From Eledone cirrhosa (lineage: Eukaryota): DNA of 64,000 bases. Shown piece after piece: positions 1 to 51,886 of this stretch. The translations under genes were made by a program, and so were the position numbers. The stretch's first letter is position 1. Every line of letters begins with the position of its first letter. Location: the NCBI GenBank assembly GCA_964016885.1, contig OZ024746.1:24180001-24244000 (forward strand). The letters are read 5' to 3'. The notes below the pieces were generated by a model. The model was not told where the DNA came from. It did no database searches and saw only the letters and a list, made by a program, of their open reading frames with translations.

Positions 1-581
1 CTTTGGCATACAATGGGTGAATAATGTTGCAGTATGATTTGGGCACTCAAAGAGTTAGAAATGGAAAGAGAAAAAAAATGAGAATATGTGGAGAAAGAGA
101 TATAAAAAAAACCCTTAAAGATATGGATAAGAACATTGAATTTAGTATTTATGCTTTCTCAGCACACTTGCTATAATCATTGGCTCTACATGTTTTACAA
201 TTCAAATACAAATTTGTCATGCTCTATTTGGTTAAATATTTTTCTTTAATTTAACCGACAAATAGTCAGTCGCATAACCAAAAGTTGTGTAAAATTCCTT
301 ACAGAACAATGAAACTTTTGTTTGATTAAATAACTTGTAGAGTAAGGTTAGGAATAAAAAAAATTTATTTTTCAATTATAGTTTGCTGGTGTTTTTATTG
401 TATTTGTGAGTATATTTTCTTTATGTTTATGCATGTGTGTGGGTGAATGATTTTTTAAATTAAAGTATTGATTAAATTCAACATTGCCATTGATGGTGAA
501 TTGAATATCTACAACTGGAAATCTGTGTAATTTGAATTGCTTCATTTCCATCTCATGCACAAATAAAATTAAGCATATTTA

Positions 582-619
<38 letters not shown>

Positions 620-3389
620 AACACGCACACATAATAATAATAATGATGATAATAATAATAAAAATAATAATAAATAATAATAATAATATACAAGTAAGAA
701 TACAAAGCTAAAGAGGATTCCTAGAAGTTAATTAAATATGTAATTAATTAACTTCAATTCATAATGAGCAAAATTCCTCTCTCAACTTTAACATCAACAA
801 TACTTAACATGAGTAGATAGACAGCATGGATTTTACAGCTCCACATTAGTCTGATTATTTATTGATTAGTAATGAGACGGATGATGATGATAATGGTAAT
901 GATGATGACAATAAAGAAGTCATCATCATTATTATTATCATTATCATCATAAGTCTCATTATTATTATTATTATTATTAATGATACTAATCAATAAATAT
1001 CATTATAAAGAGAGTGAACTGGCAGAATCATTAGAGTGTCTGTAGCTCTTTCTGTTCTGAGTTCAAATCCTGCATATTTATATATATTTATTACAATTCT
1101 ATTATTGTTATTCCTAATGTTTTCACTTCAGTGATGTCCACTCTCCTTTACTTGGTGTAAACTCCACTATATGTGGTGTTGCTTTACAGTACTGGGGTGA
1201 GGGGTAAATTCAGTTACCTCAACCCACCCTCAAATGTTGACTCGGACTGTAACCCCCTTTCAACTTATGTCAGCATGGAAAAATGGTCATATAATGATGT
1301 TGATGATAACATTTTTTAATAACTACATTAGATCTCTGTCTAAAATCTAATATTTTAACTTTAGTCTGCTATTATGAGAAGCAATGTTCTAGAAAATACC
1401 ACATCAGTCATTCCGTGACTGTATTTCTAATGAAGCACACTGCTTCTGTGTGTCAATTAGTTTTTAATGTAATGAAGGATTTCAGTTAAATAACTAACTT
1501 ATTCATTATTAAACTGTTTTTTTCAGACAAGAGTTAACAAATGGTTCTTACATAAAATTACGATGGAATATTTCAATTTAAATATAAACACTGTAAAACG
1601 AGATATGTTGTATCATAGAATCAGATGCAGTCACAGACAGGGTGGTCTCAAAGGATTAAAACAAAAGGAAAATAGTTTATAAGTCAGAATACTTCTTTTT
1701 AGAAGCTTTTTTCTTGTGAATGTAATTAGAAACTATAACATAACAGAATCATTAGAGTATTGGACAAATTATCCTCCTCATCACCATTTTAATGTCTGCT
1801 TTCCCTGCTAGCAAGAGTTGGACATGTGTACATACACCAAGTCAGTACTGAAGCAGTGCTACTGATCTCCCAGACAGGCCAGGGATCTGCATCTCGCATA
1901 TGATCTCACATTCTACCGAGTGCACAAGAGAAGTTGTCATGTCTTTGACACAAACTGAAGCTTATATGGGGATCACATAACAAAAGGTTCTTATAATACA
2001 ATTATGAAGGGGTTTGCAGAGAATAGGGAAAAGGAAGAAGTTTTATGGGGCTCACAAAATTAACCACTTATTTAGCAGCAAAATGGCATTGAAACACTTC
2101 TTCAAACACTTTAAAATAAACAGCTTTGTATTGTAGAATGAGGGGCAATTTTTGGCAGTCTTGTATCATATAGTTAAGTTGGTGTTTAGGACATAAAGGT
2201 TGTTACATAAAATTATGATGGAAGATTTTTAGATAACTATAAACAATTTAAAATAAACAGATTTGTATTGTAGAACCAGAGGCAATTTTGGGCAGACAGT
2301 TGCTTAGAACATTATTATGAAAGATTTTTAGATAAATACTGATTGGTCCAAATCAACAAGATCCTAGGCTTTATTCACTTACCAAGTGAGGTGGTACTCA
2401 TCAGATCAGACCAAAGAAACAATGTTTCCATTGGTCTTTCCAATTGTTAGTACTATCTACTGGCCACAATTCCTAGCAGAAAGAGCAACATGAATTAAAG
2501 CGTCTTTCTCAAGGACACAACACATCAGGAATCAAACTCACAACCTCACAATTGTCAATCCAATTCTCTAACCACTAAGCCACCACCTTCACTTACATAA
2601 ACACTGTAAAATATGCAGCTTTGTATTGTAGAACCAGAGGCAATTGTGGGCAATCTGGTGTTTAGGACATAATTAAAAGGTTTTTAAATAAAATTATTAT
2701 GGAAGATTTTTAGATAAATATAAACACTTTAAAATATGCAACTTTGTATTGTAGAGTCATGGCAGGTTTCAGGCAGTTTAATATCAAATGGTTAACTCCC
2801 TTCCTCACGAATGGAGGCCTCTTGTCTAAGTGACAAATCAATATATTCAATTGTTTTTCACAAGTCACATCTTTCCTCCAAGAGACAAGAGAGCCTGGTC
2901 TTGTACTTTTAACAGTTTAGCTGTCAGCTATGACCAAAATTATGTTGTTATTAACTTAATTAGATTGAAAAATACTAAAATATTTTGTTTTTTTAAAAAT
3001 TTGTCTCTGGAGATTGAATTAATTAAAAATCATATTTAAAAGACATGATTAGAACAGAAGAAAACAGCCAAAAGGATTGACCACCACCACTACCATCATC
3101 AATATCACCACTAGCACCACCACCATCATCATCATCACTATCAACATCACCAGTACCACTATCAACAACATCATCAGCATTACTACCACTACTACCATCA
3201 AATCACCAGCACCACTATCACTGCCACCATCATCATCATCACCAATACCACTTTCAATATCATTACCAGCACTACTACCACCACCATTATCACAGCCATT
3301 GTTACTACTACAACTGCCCCTATCATCAACATCAGTTGCATTTTTGTATCCATTTTTCAATGCTTGCTTGAAGTGAATGGTTTTTTTTT

Positions 3390-3970
3390 TTTTTTCTTTT
3401 TGTAAAGCATCTTACCACTTGTAGGAGTGAACCTCTTAAGATCAGCCTTTTTATTTATTTCCACATCTTCCTCGGTCTTTCTTTTTTACATCTTCCTTCC
3501 ATTTGGATCAGCTGGCACTTCATCCACCTCTTACCATTCATATACATCACATGTCTGTACCAGTGCCATATCCACTCTAGCAAACTACATCTGATTCTTT
3601 TTATACCCAGATTTCCCCTCAGGTCATCCGTGTTTCATTTAACGTTACCCAGCCAATGGAACATACTTGCTATCATTTCTTTCCAGCTTTTGTACATCCT
3701 TCATGTTCAGTGCTTGTGCTTCACTTCCATGTAATATTGCTTCTCACTCAGGAAAAGAAATCCATAACCCCCCACAGAGATAATAGCTACCAGAACTTTA
3801 TCTACTATGTTCTTACTCTGGCCATTATGCTTTTGGCACTTTCAGCTGCATGCCCAACTAGGTCACCTAGGTAACAGAAGCTATCAGCTACTTCTATGGA
3901 GCTTTCTGAACATTTAAAACAATTTATTTCATGTTCTTATGGTTAACTGCACCTGTGCATCTGCTAAATA
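3390..3970 (-). mobile_element. Degenerate RTE-clade LINE ORF2 fragment (RT thumb to C-terminus)
   Basis: Minus strand 3853-3897 translates IEVADSFCYLGDLVG (F-x-YLG motif of non-LTR RTs). Downstream are stop-ridden IMARVR, WYRHVM and GRCKKERPRKMW segments typical of RTE ORF2 C-termini. Boundaries are approximate. Confidence 0.75.
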
Positions 3971-5131
3971 CAACGACTTCCTTCACTCTCAACTGCTTAT
4001 GATACAACTACATCTGTTGAGGAGGAGGAGAAAAATAAATGAAAAGGAAAAGAAAGAAAGAAGGGAAAAAAGGAGAAGAACAAGAAAAAAAAGAAAAAAG
4101 AAAGGGAAAAAAGGAGAATATGAAGAAAAAAGAAAGGGAAAAAAGGAGAATATGAAGAAAAAAGAAAAAAGAAGAAAGAAGAAGAAAGATGAGAGAAGAA
4201 AGGAAAAAAGAAATTATATTCTTTTATTGGTTCCATGCTTCTCTTGAAGTGATTTAGTTGATCACATTCACCCCTGTGCTTCATTATTTTAATCTGGAAA
4301 TTAATTTATCAATCTTTCATTTTGTTGAACTGAACTGTTAAGTTATGGGGCATGGATACAGATACAGACAAAAATTTAAGCACTCAAACATAAGCCCATA
4401 TCTTTGTCCGGATGTTGTTCCAGGAATAAGGAAGTCTTTCTATGGTCATAGCTATTTTTCATTGAACTGCCAAACTTTGAAATTCTCTTCCATCTCATTG
4501 TTTTCCTCCTCCTCATGACCTCAACTCTTTCAAGTCTAAAGTAAATTCATTCCTTTCGTCTTAATTTCTCATTCTTCGTAGTCCCTTACACTAAGTAACT
4601 TGAGAAAACCATCACAAGAACAGCCATTAAAACAGTCAAATGCTATCAAAGTTTTTTCTCATTTTTATATGTATTTAAATACACTCATGTTTCTGCCTCC
4701 CAAACTTCACTGACAAGACATTAGTCAACCGAAGGTAAGACTATAGTAGAAGACACTTGCTCAAGGTGCCACATAGTGGGACTGAACAAGAAATCCTGTA
4801 GTTGCAAAACGAACTCTTTAACCACACAACCATGCTTGGTGGTCATTTATTTATGATTTTCATTTGAATATTTAATAGTTTAATGAATTAAAGTAGAGTT
4901 TAATAAAGTTCCATTACACTGATTGATATTGATATTTAATTAGCCCTCTCTCAAGTAAAGGTTAGTTAAATTTAAAATTATCTTTGTTGGTGGTGTTTTT
5001 TTTTTTTTTTTTGTTTTTAATTTTTGTAAATAGCTTGAAAGTGCTATAACCATGTACTTTACAGATCTTTTGGATATTTCTACCAAACTTGTATTACAGT
5101 ATGTGTGTGCATGTGTACGTATGTGTGTATC

Positions 5132-14245: not shown

Positions 14246-15700
14246 GTGACAACCATAACTACAACAACAGCAACAGTGACAACAACAACAGCAGCAGCGG
14301 TAACTACAACAACAATTGCAGCGGTCACGACAATAACAGTGATGTCAACCACAATAGCAACAATGGCCGCAACAACAACAGCAATAACAACAGCAATAAC
14401 AACAGTAACAACAACAGCAGCAAAAACAACTATAACAACAACAGCAACAGCAATAACAACAGCAACAGTAACAACAGCAGTAAAAACAACACCAATAACA
14501 ACTACAGCAGCAGCAACAGCAACAACAACAGCAGGAGTAAAAACAACAACAGTAACAACAGCAGTAAAAACAACACCAATAACAACTACAGCAGCAGCAA
14601 CAGCAATAACAACAGCAACAACAACAACAGCAGTAAAAACAACAACAGTAACAACAGCAGTAAAAACAACACCAATAACAACAACAACAGCAGCAACAGC
14701 AACAACAACAACAGCAGTAAAAACAACAACAGTAACAACAGCAGTAAAAACAACACCAATAACAACAACAGCAACAGCAATAACAACAGAAACAACAACA
14801 GCAGTAAAAACAACAACAGTAACAACAGCAGTAAAAACAACACCAATAACAACAACAGCAATAACAACAGCAACAACAACAGCAGTAAAAACAACAACAG
14901 TAACAACAGCAGTAAAAACAACACCAATAACAACAACAACAGCAGCAACAGCAATAACAACAGCAACAACAACAGCATCAGTAAAAACAACACCAATAAC
15001 AACAACAGCAGTAAAAACAACACCAATAACAACTACAGCAACAGCAATAACAACAGCAACAACAACAGCAGCAGTAAAAACAACAACAGTAACAACAGCA
15101 GCAGTAAAAACAACACCAATAACAACTACAGCAACAGCAATAACAACAGCAATAACAACACCAGCAGCAGTAAAAACAACAACAGTAACAACAGCAGCAG
15201 TAAAAACAACACCAATAACAACTACAGCAACAGCAATAACAACAGCAATAACAACAACAGCAGCAGTAAAAACAACAACAGTAACAACAACAGCAGTAAA
15301 AACAACACCAATAACAACAACAGCAGCAGCAACAGCAATAACAACAGCAACAACAACAGCAGCAGCAGTAAAAACAACAACAGTAACAACAGCAGTAAAA
15401 ACAACACCAATAACAACTACAGCAACAGCAATAACAACAGCAATAACAACAACAGCAGCAGTAAAAACAACAACAGTAACAACAGCAGCAATAACAACAC
15501 CAATAACAACAACAGCAGCAACAGCAATAACAACAGCAACAACAACAACAGCAGCAGCAGTAAAAACAACACCAATAACAGCAACAGCAGCAGCAGCAGC
15601 AACAGCTGTCACAACAACAGCAACAACAGCAATAACAACAATAACAACAGTAACAGAAGCAATAAACAACACTAACAACAACAACAGTAACAGCAACAAA
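14246..15700. repeat. Complex (ACA/GCA)-based trinucleotide repeat with higher-order units
   Basis: About 1.45 kb built almost entirely of NNA triplets with recurring GCAGTAAAAACAACACCAATAACA. It produces Thr/Ala-rich, Val-rich and poly-Leu ORFs in several frames. Confidence 0.9.
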
Positions 15701-32204: not shown

Positions 32205-32340
32205 TGTTGATGTTAGAAATCACTAGAGTCCCAAACAAAATGGCTTGCTGTCTTTGTTCAAATACCGCTGAGGTCTACTTTGTCTTTTATCCTTCCGGGG
32301 TCAATAAAATAAATTAGCAGTGAAATAATCGATTAAACAA
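32205..32340 (+). mobile_element. 5' part of a Meta-like SINE interrupted by the retrozyme insertion
   Basis: GTTCAAATACC B box and TTTATCCTTCCGGGGTCAATAAAATAAA. The family's 3' part (TTCCCCAAAA..TTGGCCTTGTGCC..ATTATTATT) resumes at 36301. Confidence 0.8.
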
Positions 32341-32626
32341 ATAACGAAACGAAATTAAATTTTGTTTCGTTTGTAACTCACTTTTGTATGACTGACGCTT
32401 AAACAATTAAGTTAAAGATGTACATCCATATATGTATACTGAAATACTAGTATGTATATGGATACACACACGTATACATATGTAGATGTACCAAGTTTTT
32501 TCACTGGTCACTTTACTGTGAGTGGCCAGCTATTCTGTATGTAAACACACAGACAAACCGGTTTTTAGAGTCATACTGGTTTTTGAGGAAACACCTTTCC
32601 TCTATTCTCCAGAAAGCCAGACAAGG

Positions 32627-32671
32627 AATATTGAACTAGTTTCGTTGTTGTTACAACTCATCAGCAACATT
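32627..32671 (-). ncRNA. Type I hammerhead ribozyme, copy 1
   Basis: Minus strand AAUGUUG-CUGAUGA-GUUGU-aaca-ACAAC-GAAA-CUA-GUU^-CAAUAUU: 7-bp stem I, 5-bp stem II and a minimal palindromic stem III. Confidence 0.9.
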
Positions 32672-33093
32672 TACCTATCTTCCGGCCTCTCTAGAGAATC
32701 GTAAAAGCACATAGCGTTATATGCTTTTTCTATGAAAATTAGTAGTGGGCAGACTAATTTGCATAGAGTGTGAGTAAGTACCGGTTCAACGGAGACGATA
32801 AAAACAAATAACGAAACGAAATTAAATTTTGTTTCGTTTGTAACTCACTTTTGTATGACTGACGCTTAAACAATTAAGTTAAAGATGTACATCCATATAT
32901 GTATACTGAAATACTAGTATGTATATGGATACACACACGTATACATATGTAGATGTACCAAGTTTTTTCACTGGTCACTTTACTGTGAGTGGCCAGCTAT
33001 TCTGTATGTAAACACACAGACAAACCGGTTTTTAGAGTCATACTGGTTTTTGAGGAAACACCTTTCCTCTATTCTCCAGAAAGCCAGACAAGG

Positions 33094-33138
33094 AATATTG
33101 AACTAGTTTCGTTGTTGTTACAACTCATCAGCAACATT
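33094..33138 (-). ncRNA. Type I hammerhead ribozyme, copy 2
   Basis: Identical to copy 1, 467 bp further along. Confidence 0.9.
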
Positions 33139-33560
33139 TACCTATCTTCCGGCCTCTCTAGAGAATCGTAAAAGCACATAGCGTTATATGCTTTTTCTAT
33201 GAAAATTAGTAGTGGGCAGACTAATTTGCATAGAGTGTGAGTAAGTACCGGTTCAACGGAGACGATAAAAACAAATAACGAAACGAAATTAAATTTTGTT
33301 TCGTTTGTAACTCACTTTTGTATGACTGACGCTTAAACAATTAAGTTAAAGATGTACATCCATATATGTATACTGAAATACTAGTATGTATATGGATACA
33401 CACACGTATACATATGTAGATGTACCAAGTTTTTTCACTGGTCACTTTACTGTGAGTGGCCAGCTATTCTGTATGTAAACACACAGACAAACCGGTTTTT
33501 AGAGTCATACTGGTTTTTGAGGAAACACCTTTCCTCTATTCTCCAGAAAGCCAGACAAGG

Positions 33561-33605
33561 AATATTGAACTAGTTTCGTTGTTGTTACAACTCATCAGCA
33601 ACATT
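33561..33605 (-). ncRNA. Type I hammerhead ribozyme, copy 3
   Basis: Identical to copy 1. Confidence 0.9.
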
Positions 33606-34027
33606 TACCTATCTTCCGGCCTCTCTAGAGAATCGTAAAAGCACATAGCGTTATATGCTTTTTCTATGAAAATTAGTAGTGGGCAGACTAATTTGCATAG
33701 AGTGTGAGTAAGTACCGGTTCAACGGAGACGATAAAAACAAATAACGAAACGAAATTAAATTTTGTTTCGTTTGTAACTCACTTTTGTATGACTGACGCT
33801 TAAACAATTAAGTTAAAGATGTACATCCATATATGTATACTGAAATACTAGTATGTATATGGATACACACACGTATACATATGTAGATGTACCAAGTTTT
33901 TTCACTGGTCACTTTACTGTGAGTGGCCAGCTATTCTGTATGTAAACACACAGACAAACCGGTTTTTAGAGTCATACTGGTTTTTGAGGAAACACCTTTC
34001 CTCTATTCTCCAGAAAGCCAGACAAGG

Positions 34028-34072
34028 AATATTGAACTAGTTTCGTTGTTGTTACAACTCATCAGCAACATT
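34028..34072 (-). ncRNA. Type I hammerhead ribozyme, copy 4
   Basis: Identical to copy 1. Confidence 0.9.
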
Positions 34073-34494
34073 TACCTATCTTCCGGCCTCTCTAGAGAAT
34101 CGTAAAAGCACATAGCGTTATATGCTTTTTCTATGAAAATTAGTAGTGGGCAGACTAATTTGCATAGAGTGTGAGTAAGTACCGGTTCAACGGAGACGAT
34201 AAAAACAAATAACGAAACGAAATTAAATTTTGTTTCGTTTGTAACTCACTTTTGTATGACTGACGCTTAAACAATTAAGTTAAAGATGTACATCCATATA
34301 TGTATACTGAAATACTAGTATGTATATGGATACACACACGTATACATATGTAGATGTACCAAGTTTTTTCACTGGTCACTTTACTGTGAGTGGCCAGCTA
34401 TTCTGTATGTAAACACACAGACAAACCGGTTTTTAGAGTCATACTGGTTTTTGAGGAAACACCTTTCCTCTATTCTCCAGAAAGCCAGACAAGG

Positions 34495-34539
34495 AATATT
34501 GAACTAGTTTCGTTGTTGTTACAACTCATCAGCAACATT
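34495..34539 (-). ncRNA. Type I hammerhead ribozyme, copy 5
   Basis: Identical to copy 1. Confidence 0.9.
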
Positions 34540-35081
34540 TACCTATCTTCCGGCCTCTCTAGAGAATCGTAAAAGCACATAGCGTTATATGCTTTTTCTA
34601 TGAAAATTAGTAGTGGGCAGACTAATTTGCATAGAGTGTGAGTAAGTACCGGTTCAACGGAGACGATAAAAACAAATAACGAAACGAAATTAAATTTTGT
34701 TTCGTTTGTAACTCACTTTTGTATGACTGACGCTTAAACAATTAAGTTAAAGATGTACATCCACTCACAGTAAAGTGACCAGTGAAAAAACTTGGTACAT
34801 CTACATATGTATACGTGTGTGTATCCATATACATACTAGTATTTCAGTATACATATATGGATGTACATCTTTAACTTAATTGTTTAAGCGTCAGTCATAC
34901 AAAAGTGAGTTACAAACGAAACAAAATTTAATTTCGTTTCGTTATTTGTTTTTATCGTCTCCGTTGAACCGGTACTTACTCACACTCTATGCAAATTAGT
35001 CTGCCCACTACTAATTTTCATAGAAAAAGCATATAACGCTATGTGCTTTTACGATTCTCTAGAGAGGCCGGAAGATAGGTA

Positions 35082-35126
35082 AATGTTGCTGATGAGTTGT
35101 AACAACAACGAAACTAGTTCAATATT
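35082..35126 (+). ncRNA. Type I hammerhead ribozyme, copy 6 (inverted arm)
   Basis: AATGTTG (35082-88), CTGATGA (35089-95), GTTGT-aaca-ACAAC, GAAA (35110-13), CTA-GTT (predicted cut after 35119), CAATATT. Stem I extends with bulges over about 35054-35149. Confidence 0.9.
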
Positions 35127-35548
35127 CCTTGTCTGGCTTTCTGGAGAATAGAGGAAAGGTGTTTCCTCAAAAACCAGTATGACTCTAAAAACCGGTTTGT
35201 CTGTGTGTTTACATACAGAATAGCTGGCCACTCACAGTAAAGTGACCAGTGAAAAAACTTGGTACATCTACATATGTATACGTGTGTGTATCCATATACA
35301 TACTAGTATTTCAGTATACATATATGGATGTACATCTTTAACTTAATTGTTTAAGCGTCAGTCATACAAAAGTGAGTTACAAACGAAACAAAATTTAATT
35401 TCGTTTCGTTATTTGTTTTTATCGTCTCCGTTGAACCGGTACTTACTCACACTCTATGCAAATTAGTCCGCCCACTACTAATTTTCATAGAAAAAGCATA
35501 TAACGCTATGTGCTTTTACGATTCTCTAGAGAGGCCGGAAGATAGGTA

Positions 35549-35593
35549 AATGTTGCTGATGAGTTGTAACAACAACGAAACTAGTTCAATATT
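35549..35593 (+). ncRNA. Type I hammerhead ribozyme, copy 7
   Basis: Identical to copy 6, +467 bp. Confidence 0.9.
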
Positions 35594-36015
35594 CCTTGTC
35601 TGGCTTTCTGGAGAATAGAGGAAAGGTGTTTCCTCAAAAACCAGTATGACTCTAAAAACCGGTTTGTCTGTGTGTTTACATACAGAATAGCTGGCCACTC
35701 ACAGTAAAGTGACCAGTGAAAAAACTTGGTACATCTACATATGTATACGTGTGTGTATCCATATACATACTAGTATTTCAGTATACATATATGGATGTAC
35801 ATCTTTAACTTAATTGTTTAAGCGTCAGTCATACAAAAGTGAGTTACAAACGAAACAAAATTTAATTTCGTTTCGTTATTTGTTTTTATCGTCTCCGTTG
35901 AACCGGTACTTACTCACACTCTATGCAAATTAGTCTGCCCACTACTAATTTTCATAGAAAAAGCATATAACGCTATGTGCTTTTACGATTCTCTAGAGAG
36001 GCCGGAAGATAGGTA

Positions 36016-36060
36016 AATGTTGCTGATGAGTTGTAACAACAACGAAACTAGTTCAATATT
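36016..36060 (+). ncRNA. Type I hammerhead ribozyme, copy 8
   Basis: Identical to copy 6, +934 bp. Confidence 0.9.
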
Positions 36061-36285
36061 CCTTGTCTGGCTTTCTGGAGAATAGAGGAAAGGTGTTTCC
36101 TCAAAAACCAGTATGACTCTAAAAACCGGTTTGTCTGTGTGTTTACATACAGAATAGCTGGCCACTCACAGTAAAGTGACCAGTGAAAAAACTTGGTACA
36201 TCTACATATGTATACGTGTGTGTATCCATATACATACTAGTATTTCAGTATACATATATGGATGTACATCTTTAACTTAATTGTT

Positions 36286-36356
36286 TAATCGATTAAACAA
36301 TTCCCCAAAAAGTTTTGGCCTTGTGCCTGTGTTAGACATTATTATTATTATCATTA
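36286..36356 (+). mobile_element. 3' part of the SINE split by the retrozyme insertion
   Basis: TAATCGATTAAACAATTCCCCAAAAAGTTTTGGCCTTGTGCC...ATTATTATT matches the family 3' end seen at 42030-42101 and 50520-50575. Confidence 0.8.
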
Positions 36357-36611
36357 TAAAGAAACCATTATTATTATCATTATTATTTGAAACTTCTTTT
36401 GAATTCTGCTACTTTCCTACATCATGCCAAGTATCAACCTGACACCTGAGGCAAAATCTGATAATACACACATTTTACAATCAATTGTCATACAATGATG
36501 CTAACAGAAATGTCTTTGCAAGGTATTTAAATTAATAATGCACTTTCAGGAGATGGACAGTGCCAGCCAGCACTATTTTCTGTATCACTTGCTCATACCA
36601 TTTTTCAGAAT

Positions 36612-43404: not shown

Positions 43405-44350
43405 TGTTACACTGGTATCACAACTGTAGGTTATTGACTAATGTTACATTGGTGTCACAACTGTAGGTTACTGACTAATGTTACATTGGTGTCACAACTG
43501 TAGGTTACTGACTAATGTTACATTGGTATCACAACTGTAGGTTATTGACTAATGTTACATTGGTGTCACAACTGTAGGTTACTGACTAATGTTACATTGG
43601 TGTCACAACTGTAGGTTACTGACTAATGTTACATTGGTGTCACAACTGTAGGTTACTGACTAATGTTACATTGGTGTCACAACTGTAGCTTATTGACTAA
43701 TGTTACATTGGTGTCACAACTGTAGGTTATTGACTAATGTTACATTGGTGTCACAACTGTAGGTTACTGACTAATGTTACATTGGTGTCACAACTGTAGC
43801 TTATTGACTAATGTTACATTGGTGTCACAACTGTAGGTTATTGACTAATGTTACATTGGTGTCACAACTGTAGGTTATTGACTAATGTTACATTGGTGTC
43901 ACAACTGTAGGTTACTGACTAATGTTACATTGGTGTCACAACTGTAGGTTACTGACTAATGTTACATTGGTGTCACAACTGTTTGTTACTGACTAATGTT
44001 ACATTGGTGTCACAACTGTAGGTTACTGACTAATGTTACATTGGTGTCACAACTGTAGGTTACTGACTAATGTTACATTGGTGTCACAACTGTTTGTTAT
44101 TGACTAATGTTACATTGGTGTCACAACTGTTGGTTACTGACTAATGTTACATTGGTGTCACAACTGTTTGTTACTGACTAATGTTACATTGGTGTCACAA
44201 CTGTTTGTTACTGACTAATGTTACATTGGTGTCACAACTGTTGGTTACTGACTAATGTTACATTGGTGTCACAACTGTAGGTTACTGACTAATGTTATGC
44301 TGGTGTCAATTGTAGGTTACTATGTTACACTGGTTTCACAACTATAGGTA
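43405..44350. repeat. 37-bp minisatellite (about 25 copies)
   Basis: Unit TGTTACATTGGTGTCACAACTGTAGGTTACTGACTAA at 43442, 43479 and onward. Confidence 0.97.
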
Positions 44351-45439
44351 CTGGCCATGCTGGAAAAGACCTATTTAACCTATGAAAGCAAGGGACGTAT
44401 GATGATGATACATCATTTGTTATAGAAAATGTTAGTGTTTCAACATTGGTTCCAAAGACTGTTTCATACACACACATACATCCATGCACACACATCCCTG
44501 TACATACACAGACAAATGAACACACCCACAAATTCACATAAGCACAAACAGGCACCCATACCCAAGCATACACCTACACAAACACACATATGCATAAACA
44601 CCCACACATGCAAACACACACAAGCACACACAAAGACACATACCCAAGCATACACCTCCACAAACACACATATGCATAAACACCCACACATGCAAACACA
44701 CACAAGCACACACAAAGACACACAAACAAATACCCACATGCACAAACACACATATACATACATATACACACACATACAAGCATACCCAAAGACACAAACA
44801 TGTACACATAGAAGCACACACAAAGACAAACACACACACACACACACACACATAGACATCATTTTATCTAGTTGACCATTTCAATTACAATATACTAGAA
44901 ATAAACTTTGTGAAATCTTGATAATATATTGATGATAAATAAGGTAAAATAAGGTAAAACTCGAACTAATGTTATAAAATTTATGGTTTTTTTCTCTTGT
45001 TCATGATAGATTTTGGAGATAATCAACTTCAAAGTAGCCATGGAACTTAGCCATTATCACGTTGTTTTGTAATAATACTTCCTAGAGAGTAGTGAGATAT
45101 AAAGAAGAATTGCAACAATAAAACCTGCTGTTATCTCTTTAAACTGCATTTGGTAAAAATATCCACCAGTTAGTAAAAAAAAAACTGAGTTGAAATTCTA
45201 GCACAGTTTGATCTTTGATATTTCCTATAACAACATACTGATCTAAATAGACTATTCTTAAAAACCTCTTCTTTACATCCGTTACCGGCGCCATGATGAA
45301 GTTCCTCATCTAGCTTACCCAGTCCAACAGCAGTAGCAGCAACAATAGTAACAGAAACAATGGCAACTGCATCACTAGCAACAACAACAGAAGCAACAGT
45401 AGCAACAGCAAAAACAACAACAGAAACACATCAACACTT

Positions 45440-47046: not shown

Positions 47047-47390
47047 TCATTCATTCATTCATTTCATTTTACGTCCACTTTTCCCTGCTTGCAAGGGTGG
47101 GACGGGAACTGATTCTGGCTTGATTTCTACAGCTGGATGCCCTTCCTAACACCAACCTCATTTATAGTGAGTGCTGGGTGCTTTTTTGCCGTGGCACCTC
47201 CACGACCACTTTGCAGTGGAATGATAGGGACCCCAGTCCCTATCATCTCATTTCTACAGCTGAGTAAACTGGAGCAATGTGAAATAAAGTGTCTTGCTCA
47301 AGGAAACAACACATCACCCAGTCTGAGAATTGAACTCACAACCTTTCGATTGCAAGGCCAATGCTCTAACCACTAAGCCATGTGCCTCCA
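47046..47390 (-). mobile_element. Young tRNA-derived SINE, copy 3 (full length)
   Basis: Reverse complement of 37679-38026 with few substitutions, (ATGA)n tail, adjacent to a long (TA)n tract. Confidence 0.9.
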
Positions 47391-48769: not shown

Positions 48770-49710
48770 ATATAGATACTCTGGGTGTTTTCCAACTACC
48801 ACATCTGTAGCCATAGTTTCAGAAATACTGAACGCTCCCTCATGTTTTCCACCTATCACATCTGCAGCTATAGTTTGTAGAAATACTGAACTCTCCCTTG
48901 TGATTTCTAACTAAGTTTCTGTAATACTGAACTCTCCTGTGTGTTTTCCAACAACCACATCTGTAACCAGTAATTCCAATAATACTGAACCTTCCCTTGT
49001 GTTTTCCAACTACCACATTTGTAGTCAGTTTCAGAAATACTGAACTCTCCCTCATATTTTCCAACTACAACATCTATAGCCATAGTTTTAGAAATACTGA
49101 ACTTTACCTTATGTTTTCCAACTGTCACATCTGCAGCCATAATTTTAGAAATACTGAACTCTCCCCCTTGTTTTCCAACTATCCCATCTGTAACCATAAT
49201 TTTAGAAATACTAAACCCTCCTTTATGTTTTCCAACTGTCACATCTGTAGCCATAATTTTAGAAATACTAAACTCTCCCTTGTGTTTTCCAACTGTCACA
49301 TCTGTAGCCATAATTTTAGAAATATTAAACTCTCGCTTGTGTTTTCCAACTGTCACATCTGTAGCCATAATTTTAGAAATACTAAACTCTCCCTTGTGTT
49401 TTCCAACTGTCACATCTGTAGCCATAATTTTAGAAATATTAAACTCTCGCTTGTGTTTTCCAACTGTCACATCTGTAGCCATAATTTTAGAAATACTAAA
49501 CTCTCCCTTGTGTTTTCCAACTGTCACATCTGTAGCCATAATTTTAGAAATACTAAACTCTCCCTTGTGTTTTCCAACTGTCACATCTGTAGCCATAATT
49601 TTAGAAATATTAAACTCTCGCTTGTGTTTTCCAACTGTCACATCTGTAGCCATAATTTTAGAAATACTAAACTCAATACTGTTTTTTTAAAACTAACACA
49701 TCTGTAGCAA
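48770..49710. repeat. 57-bp minisatellite (about 16 copies, homogeneous on the right, degenerate on the left)
   Basis: Unit TGTGTTTTCCAACTGTCACATCTGTAGCCATAATTTTAGAAATACTAAACTCTCCCT; 19-aa periodicity in the ORF track. Confidence 0.95.
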
Positions 49711-50657: not shown

Positions 50658-51325
50658 GTCTAACAGTCTATAGTAGCCTGTATCAGGAATATAACTGTCA
50701 GTGAAACTGTCAACACACATCTTAAAGATAGTATCTGGGTCTAACTGTCTATAGTAGCCTGTATCAGGAATATAACTGTCAGTGAAACTGTCAACACACA
50801 TCTTAAAGATAGTATCTGGGTCTGTCTATAGTAGCCTGTATCAGGAATATAACTGTCAGTGAAACTATCAACACACATCTTAAAGATAGTATCTGGGTCT
50901 GTCTATAGTAGCCTGTATCAGGAATATAACTGTCAGTGAAACTGTCAACACACATCTTAAAGATAGTATCTGGGTCTAACAGTCTATAGTAGCCTGTATC
51001 AGGAATATAACTGTCAGTGAAACTGTCAACACACATCTTAAAGATAGTATCTGGGTCTAACTGTCTATAGTAGCCTGTATCAGGAATATAACTGTCAACA
51101 CACATCTTAAAGATAGTATCTGGGTCTAACTGTCTATAGTAGCCTGTATCAGGAATATAACTGTCAATGAAACTGTCAACACACATCTTAAAGATAGTAT
51201 CTGGGTCTAACAGTCTATAGTAGCCTGTATCAGGAATATAACTGTCAGTGAAACTGTCAACACACATCTTAAAGATAGTATCTGGGTCTAACTGTCTATA
51301 GTAGCCTGTATCAGGAATATATACA
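50658..51325. repeat. ~81-bp minisatellite (about 8 copies, with shorter variants)
   Basis: TAAC(A/T)GTCTATAGTAGCCTGTATCAGGAATATAACTGTCAGTGAAACTGTCAACACACATCTTAAAGATAGTATCTGGGTC at 50661, 50742 and onward. Confidence 0.95.
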
Positions 51326-51520
51326 TGTATCTTCTAGGCAGTGTCTATCTGTCTAACTATCTGTCAAACTGCCTATAGTAGCTGTATCAGGAATATAACA
51401 TTTATCTTATAGATAGTGTCTTGAAATCTATTTGTCTGTCTATCTGCATCTGTTTGTTTGTCCATCCATGTGTCTGTATATCTGTCTGATTGTGTTTCTA
51501 TGTCTGTCAAACTGTCAACA

Positions 51521-51886
51521 TTTATCTTATAGACAGTGTCTATCTGCCTCTCTAACTATCTATAGTAGGTGTATCAGGAACATATAGATTTATCTTATAG
51601 ACAGTGTCTATCTGCCTCTCTAACTATCTATAGTAGGTGTATCAGGAACATATAGATTTATCTTATAGACAGTGTCTATCTGCCTCTCTAACTATCTATA
51701 GTAGGTGTATCAGGAACATATAGATTTATCTTATAGACAGTGTCTATCTGCCTCTCTAACTATCTATAGTAGGTGTATCAGGAACATATAGATTTATCTT
51801 ATAGACAGTGTCTATCTGCCTCTCTAACTATCTATAGTAGGTGTATCAGGAACATATAGATTTATCTTATAGACAGTGTCTATCTA
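51521..51886. repeat. 68-bp minisatellite (5+ copies)
   Basis: TTTATCTTATAGACAGTGTCTATCTGCCTCTCTAACTATCTATAGTAGGTGTATCAGGAACATATAGA at 51521, 51589 and onward. Confidence 0.95.

Follow-up and report, generated by a model that had tools for sequence, protein, structure and literature searches.

Two-armed arrays of a predicted hammerhead retrozyme in Eledone cirrhosa and their possible two-ended origin

Insert and target site

The window analysed here is a stretch of 64,000 nucleotides of Eledone cirrhosa DNA (assembly GCA_964016885.1, contig OZ024746.1, positions 24,180,001 to 24,244,000, forward strand). At 32326–36300 it carries an insert made of two back-to-back arrays of a 467 bp unit with a predicted hammerhead ribozyme; this insert and its relatives elsewhere in the genome are described below. 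Phases within the unit were counted from the first base 3′ of the predicted ribozyme cut (phase 1).

The left arm (32335–34763, ribozyme on the minus strand) begins at a position termed site B, here phase 299 (family mode 303), and runs to phase 206 over 5.20 turns without a mismatch between turns. The right arm (34761–36288, ribozyme on the plus strand) comprises 3.27 turns, and its outer end starts at a second position, site A, here phase 235 (229–234 in the family). Over the total of about 8.5 turns a single base differs in a single turn, at 35469 (plus strand) in the right arm. The arms meet at 34761–34763 in a 3 nt microhomology, CCA, which fits both arms (phases 206 and 109) and forms no fold-back palindrome. 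These measurements agree with the original prediction, which had proposed about 5.2 and 3.3 turns, fusion at CCA and arms starting at different phases, neither at the cut. The stretch from B to A (32335–32399, minus strand) is present at the left end only and corresponds to the ‘tail’ of Penelope-type elements (PMC11167929; PMC8557442). With the ribozyme on opposite strands in the two arms (minus at the left, plus at the right), the strand that extends from either target 3′ end into the insert is antisense to the ribozyme, as had been claimed.

The insert is flanked by a direct repeat, TAATCGATTAAACAA, at 32326–32340 and 36286–36300 (plus strand). The 15 bp target-site duplication (TSD) reported earlier is thus present in both copies, but its length is an upper bound on a true value of 7–15 bp because AAACAA at the left and TA at the right also match the unit; TSDs in the family are mostly 11–13 bp. 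The final 6 nt of the left copy, AAACAA, are common to the unit at site B, and the right junction reads CGATTA against CGCTTA in the unit at site A (five of six bases), both as first described. Such primer–template matches are unusually long for the family. Together with the arm end, the right copy forms a 24 bp palindrome centred on 36290/36291.

The target lies in a high-copy host repeat, presumably a short interspersed nuclear element (SINE). Its left part (32245–32325, plus strand) has 41 other matches at 82–90% identity, and comparison with other copies places its resumption, into an (ATT)n tail, at 36301–36360 (plus strand). The repeat is in register across the insert: TAATCGA to CCTTGTGC measures 41 nt here and 39–45 nt in three other copies. 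It does not resume seamlessly, as had been stated, since about 15 nt are absent just left of the TSD relative to the three compared copies, and TAAACAATT, the unit's own site-A start, stands where these have a pyrimidine tract. In the genome TAATCGAYTAAACAATTCCCC occurs once and TAATCGAYTAAACNNNNCCCC three times. The target TAAACAATT, rare in the host repeat, may be either the reason that a non-TA site was used or the scar of abortive priming at site A. Presence of TAATCGATTAAACAATT in the target before insertion would fit site choice by RNA match; a pyrimidine tract would fit the scar.

The unit has 35% GC and is non-coding (longest open reading frame, ORF, 60 amino acids). Type I hammerheads are predicted in the left arm at 32627–32671 (minus strand), the first of five, with the others starting at 33094, 33561, 34028 and 34495, and in the right arm at 35082–35126, 35549–35593 and 36016–36060 (plus strand). 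The predicted fold has stem I AAUGUUG/CAAUAUU, stem II GUUGU/ACAAC and a 2 bp palindromic stem III, with the cut predicted after GUU at 35119; the core, three stems and cut triplet are present in all eight full cores of the window. In an alignment of 12 variants 93% of cells are paired, with compensatory change at six of 14 pairs; the variants are related, so that this covariation counts as support and not as a probability. The hammerhead scores below the gathering threshold in Rfam. Its exact core occurs 4,948 times in the 3.0 Gb genome (control, 0).

As in retrozymes without long terminal repeats (non-LTR retrozymes), every tandem unit carries a hammerhead, the unit is short, low in GC, non-coding and without LTR layout, and the copies are dispersed and mobile with TSDs longer than 4 bp. 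The reverse transcriptase (RT) plus GIY-YIG reading frame of an autonomous Penelope-like element is missing, as no ORF exceeds 60 amino acids. On these features the unit is classed as a young type I hammerhead non-LTR retrozyme with thousands of insertions, estimated at about 2,500; it appears to behave like a non-autonomous Penelope passenger.

Polarity, start sites and pairing in the family

Three sets of insertions, 66 in total, were compared: 19 best DNA matches, 27 with the exact core and 20 mostly from a list of site-B ends. The exact-core group takes in every such insertion from the initial 58 Mb of the largest contig and serves as the unselected set. Removed before counting were L032, which meets a contig end, one piece of L033 that duplicated another, L081/82, whose right end lay outside the retrieved sequence, and L136, which has an N gap. 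Polarity, start sites, their pairing and the TSD range were read directly from the sequences.

All 45 inverted joints pass from antisense to sense and none in reverse; the random polarity among other arrays that would have spoken against the original prediction is therefore absent. The outer ends gather at two positions about 69 nt apart on the RNA: phase ~303, where the unit has a U-tract (site B), and phases 229–235, in the loop of a small predicted hairpin (site A). Both ends could be classed in 48 of the 66 insertions, giving 47 A+B, one A+A and no B+B; independent choice of sites could yield at most half A+B. The unselected chromosome set gave A+B in 19 of 20. When end lists, which overlap these sets, were paired by position only, 27 of 29 inward-facing pairs were A+B and there were no outward-facing pairs. 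Either site may be on the left (26 versus 21 insertions), and the window, with B at the left and A at the right, follows the rule. Eight apparently single-armed insertions carry a second arm of 11–22 nt that starts at the other site.

A random start phase found by microhomology, as first proposed, was consequently rejected: the starts are fixed, A at one end and B at the other (47/48), and the microhomologies sit on these fixed sites. An apparent B+B pair was also discarded after it resolved as two insertions.

Targets are normally (TA)n. By eye, the insertion in the window, a rare non-TA target, is alone among the 66 in lacking a TA run at a classed end. Among 39 insertions examined, nine have an irregular target; the TSD is 11–13 bp in six of these and 15, 20 and 42 bp in the remaining three. 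An inverted arm, a one-sided tail and an AT-rich target, as in a Penelope passenger, are all present.

A second hammerhead retrozyme family (~430–510 nt, 63% identical to the unit; L047:25–894, L112, L125, L148:8788–10000 and L149) has two corresponding start sites, similar predicted hairpins and (TA)n targets. The AT-rich hairpin of the unit can merge into TA expansions (L031:2600–2780, L047:4273–4392), and one insertion sits inside a copy of the second family.

Template, joints and proposed mechanism

The 28 loci that have full turns carry 23 different haplotypes, each of them fixed from turn to turn. Two two-armed arrays of 18 and 20 turns have three private variants each, present in both arms. 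At diagnostic sites the arms of 43 two-armed loci were identical in 29, differed once in 11, twice in two and five times in one; this haplotype identity is a direct observation. Of 47 insertions, 44 have a B arm that extends beyond site A and 20 have more than one turn in both arms; the longest arm reaches 30.7 turns. The inner ends are spread round the unit (Kolmogorov–Smirnov p = 0.09), with six of 88 within 15 nt of the cut versus 5.7 expected, and a linear monomer template, on which arms would stop at the ribozyme cut, was rejected on this count. Arm-length correlation was not used as a sign of simultaneous copying, because rho was 0.47 overall (n = 47) but about 0 in the unselected set (n = 19).

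Constant haplotypes over turns, the lack of a stop at the cut and arms of up to 30 turns together favour a circular monomer template, which we regard as probable, and the arm comparison leans towards both arms usually having been copied from one molecule. Circles are known for other animal retrozymes, and multi-unit cDNA from circles has been proposed (PMC7229834; PMC7761336; PMC4209133). At phases 271/387 and 387/433 of the unit all four allele combinations occur across loci, which hints at recombination or template switching between variants, or at recurrent mutation.

The template could instead have been a long uncleaved read-through transcript of the parent array, primed at A and B without a circle. 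Uncleaved RNA is the main substrate in vitro (PMC11167929), a 2 bp stem III predicts weak cleavage of monomers (PMC4209133), and homogeneous young parent arrays would give homogeneous daughters. Private variants that recur in every turn of both arms of the 18- and 20-turn arrays nevertheless require a one-unit bottleneck, none of 17 single-ended insertions inspected ran into a parent's central joint or into a distant partner end of its own, and multi-turn copying of both arms, up to 30.7 turns, is hard to accommodate. This template is judged unlikely.

Double priming might also have given about one turn per arm, with arrays grown later by unequal crossover, as a recent preprint assumes in its discussion of retrozyme tandems (bioRxiv 10.64898/2026.07.22.740005). 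Variants shared by blocks of turns in four of the 28 arrays (C1:5.7, C1:54.2, C1:56.4 and C1:69.5 Mb) fit this idea and indicate that some turns were added later at the DNA level. As a general account it is quite improbable: most young arrays contain singletons only, the 8.5 turns of the window are nearly uniform, and inverted arms would have to expand separately yet remain identical.

Joint sequences were likewise read directly, although joint positions are inexact where copies are less than about 95% identical; the overlap of 32 recorded for L036 is a hairpin artefact (5 by exact walk). Of 20 young joints, 12 are free of inserts, and 11 of these 12 have at least 2 nt of microhomology (null 18%). 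Four of the 20 hold inserts of 15–18 nt that repeat the adjacent arm end. Microhomology and inserts of this kind are the signature of polymerase-theta end joining, which may have formed these joints. The idea that both target ends were primed, copied over several turns and joined by microhomology is supported by the uniform polarity (45/45), the matching arm haplotypes and the young joints.

In published hypotheses for Penelope, the inversion is a product of self-priming, with an antisense transcript as template, and the tail is left when the endonuclease resolves an intermediate (PMC3846280; PMC8557442). Joints of F2, a Penelope-like family of the same genome, are near-palindromic in keeping with this, but these palindromes arise because both F2 arms reach one fixed 5′ end. 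The retrozyme joints are not palindromic, the distance between their two inner ends is within 15 nt in three of 44 cases, close to the chance rate, and tiny arms start exactly at A or B beside the target. The spacing argues against fold-back and against self-priming in the retrozyme family, for which the latter is highly improbable.

A second copy of the window flank, representing an empty allele, was not found in the assembly; among the matches listed, contigs from four sequencing runs gave no empty allele, and no read or contig bridged the central joint of the window. Although this would suit a fold-back artefact of reads or assembly, such an origin can be practically dismissed, since the arms meet at different phases between unique flanks and a TSD, 44 other loci share the polarity with different joints, and an artefact would not select one A and one B end.

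The reading preferred here, to which we assign a probability of about 0.7, is that the insert represents two back-to-back 467 nt hammerhead retrozyme arrays started from two fixed sites, one per end, in a single event by a Penelope-like RT/GIY-YIG enzyme, probably on circular RNA. That a Penelope-type enzyme primed both ends is its firmest part and very probable. Array transcripts would self-cleave, likely as dimers because stem III is a 2 bp palindrome, and then be ligated into circles. An enzyme, likely dimeric, would bind this RNA with one active site at A (the hairpin loop, phases 229–235) and the other at B (~303) and cut the target, as a rule (TA)n, with a stagger of about 12 bp. Each target 3′ end would prime by pairing over a few bases with its own site, each RT would circle the template for a variable number of turns, and host microhomology-mediated end joining would fuse the two cDNA ends.

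Several observations weigh against this reading. One end is unclassed in 18 of the 66 insertions, one classed insertion is A+A and another lacks a duplication. Arms differ at five of 63 sites in one locus and at two in two others, so that a single template molecule is not universal; the block-shared variants do not follow from copying alone, and arm lengths are uncorrelated in the unselected set. With a purified Penelope protein in vitro, the two strands showed no difference in start site, with products pooled, and uncleaved RNA was the main substrate, as far as the available text goes (PMC11167929). The retrozyme RNA, its circle and its self-cleavage are predictions from genomic DNA; no RNA data set containing the unit was listed. 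No Penelope family sharing the ends of the unit was seen among seven families in 50 loci, a small sample.

Penelope-like elements and known systems

Elements with RT and GIY-YIG are present in the genome: of 10,594 GIY-YIG candidates 150 were scored, and RT plus GIY-YIG was found in nine of 16 frames scanned. They are Neptune-like, the clade being assigned by a CxxC motif ahead of the nuclease. Family F2 (5,579 exact ribozyme cores) shows the retrozyme polarity in 23 of 23 close opposite-strand pairs, counted by hand in 100 listed places, and 21 inverted F2 loci comprise 15 A+B, no A+A, no B+B and six with one end unclassed. F1 (L143) and F3 (L144, L150, L155) have one short and one tailed end each. 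In F2 23 of 42 arms stop 38–52 nt upstream of their own ribozyme, which is read as the 5′ end of a presumed linear transcript. Two RNAs per F2 insertion are not claimed, since arm differences could reflect age. Many short inverted F2 insertions (L165–L184, L151) have both arms ending about 44 nt upstream of the ribozyme, giving near-palindromes of retro origin that resemble miniature inverted-repeat transposable elements.

At L133 (G000:C1:41489100–41494100, positions 553–4300) a (TA)n tract is followed by a retrozyme B arm, 39 nt of sense unit, 2.5 kb of sense F3 and (TA)n. The F3 part ends at F3's own A site, so that the A+B rule is kept across two RNAs; it is 2.4% diverged from sampled relatives, more than the retrozyme turns are from one another (1/469 and 2/328). 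F3 is a candidate partner, although two neighbouring insertions fused by a later deletion would have the same appearance. Long stop-free Penelope-like frames with RT and C-terminal nuclease motifs, candidates for active enzymes, occur at L140:2775–6062 (1096 amino acids), L138:4809–7622 (938) and L131:752–3091 (780).

Published Penelope-like elements have an inverted truncated copy, a one-sided tail of 30–40 bp and (TA)n targets (PMC8557442; PMC3846280), and work on a purified Penelope protein, for which a dimer is predicted, has shown cutting and extension of both strands, with synthesis starting at two internal positions of the RNA; the tail is the interval between these positions (PMC11167929). 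The endonuclease-bearing members (Craig et al., 2021, PMC8557442; Arkhipova et al., 2013, PMC3846280; Frangieh et al., 2024, PMC11167929) share with the retrozyme the 5′-truncated inverted copy, the one-sided tail, TSDs of about 8–13 bp, AT-rich or (TA)n targets, a hammerhead upstream of the ends, cutting and extension of both strands and two internal RT starts. The retrozyme differs in having no ORF, a tail of ~69 nt against 30–40 and many-turn arms without a fixed stop. One start site per end of a single insertion is not stated in the available text of this literature.

Metazoan non-LTR retrozymes (Cervera & de la Pena, 2020, PMC7229834; review, PMC7761336; Li, Clavereau & Pollet, 2026, bioRxiv 10.64898/2026.07.22.740005) are likewise non-coding, low-GC tandem units, a few hundred bases long, each with a single type I hammerhead and present in thousands of copies, and a circular intermediate giving multi-unit cDNA and a Penelope partner have been proposed for them. 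Their 2020 unit range, 150–450 bp, lies slightly below the 467 nt found here. Their circles and cleavage have been demonstrated, whereas for the E. cirrhosa unit both are predictions. The accessible parts of these texts give no inverted two-arm layout, fixed start sites or target preference; the 2026 preprint argues for the retrozyme as a Penelope passenger from phylogeny and ascribes tandems to local amplification.

The original prediction had likened the insertion to both Penelope and L1 twin priming, and the first likeness holds. L1 twin priming (PMC10760644) resembles the present case in second priming at the target, inverted geometry and a microhomology join of two cDNAs. The L1 pattern of a poly(A) end and non-overlapping cDNAs is absent: there is no poly(A) priming, both starts lie at fixed internal positions, the arms share part of their template (B arm past site A) and inversion is the normal outcome of the family and not a side product. 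Twin priming of L1 was reportedly described by Ostertag and Kazazian in 2001.

The separate parts are already known; neither the rule of one site per end nor two-armed retrozyme arrays were found in print in our literature search, outside which most subscription papers fell. There is perhaps an even chance that Penelope-type retrotransposition is two-ended by default, a dimer with fixed roles using site A to prime one target strand and site B to prime the other, with either a single RNA or a pair of RNAs as template and no second-strand step of its own at the ends. Tandem and inverted Penelope structures and the integration of animal retrozymes are both described as open questions (PMC8557442; PMC7761336; bioRxiv 10.64898/2026.07.22.740005). 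If the proposed mechanism is true, Penelope inverted repeats, tails and retrozyme tandems would share one explanation; a ribozyme circle would undergo double rolling-circle reverse transcription, leaving kilobases of inverted satellite per event, and the two-ended reaction could splice a retrozyme arm to a Penelope arm, as possibly at L133 (B from the retrozyme, A from F3). The family yields precise expectations (a single start site for each target end, a ~12 bp stagger, multi-turn copying of a monomer and host end joining) and supplies a defined RNA, target and candidate enzymes for in vitro work. It also argues for reverse transcription as a direct source of full-length hammerhead satellites, and outlines a route by which long inverted repeats may be planted at thousands of genomic sites.

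In two sequencing runs labelled as two other organisms (X4 and X5) the unit occurs at ~98% without the flank (window 32335–32800). In X5 it is one 497-letter contig closing on itself, and a tandem array would yield the same contig; relatives, transfer or contamination are all possible sources. Elsewhere in the window, 47319–47382 (minus strand) gives a weak tRNA-like Rfam match (29.9 bits), probably a SINE head, and a long (AAC)n-rich tract and several 37–81 bp minisatellites lie at 14279–15700, 43405–44353, 48923–49674 and 50658–51885.

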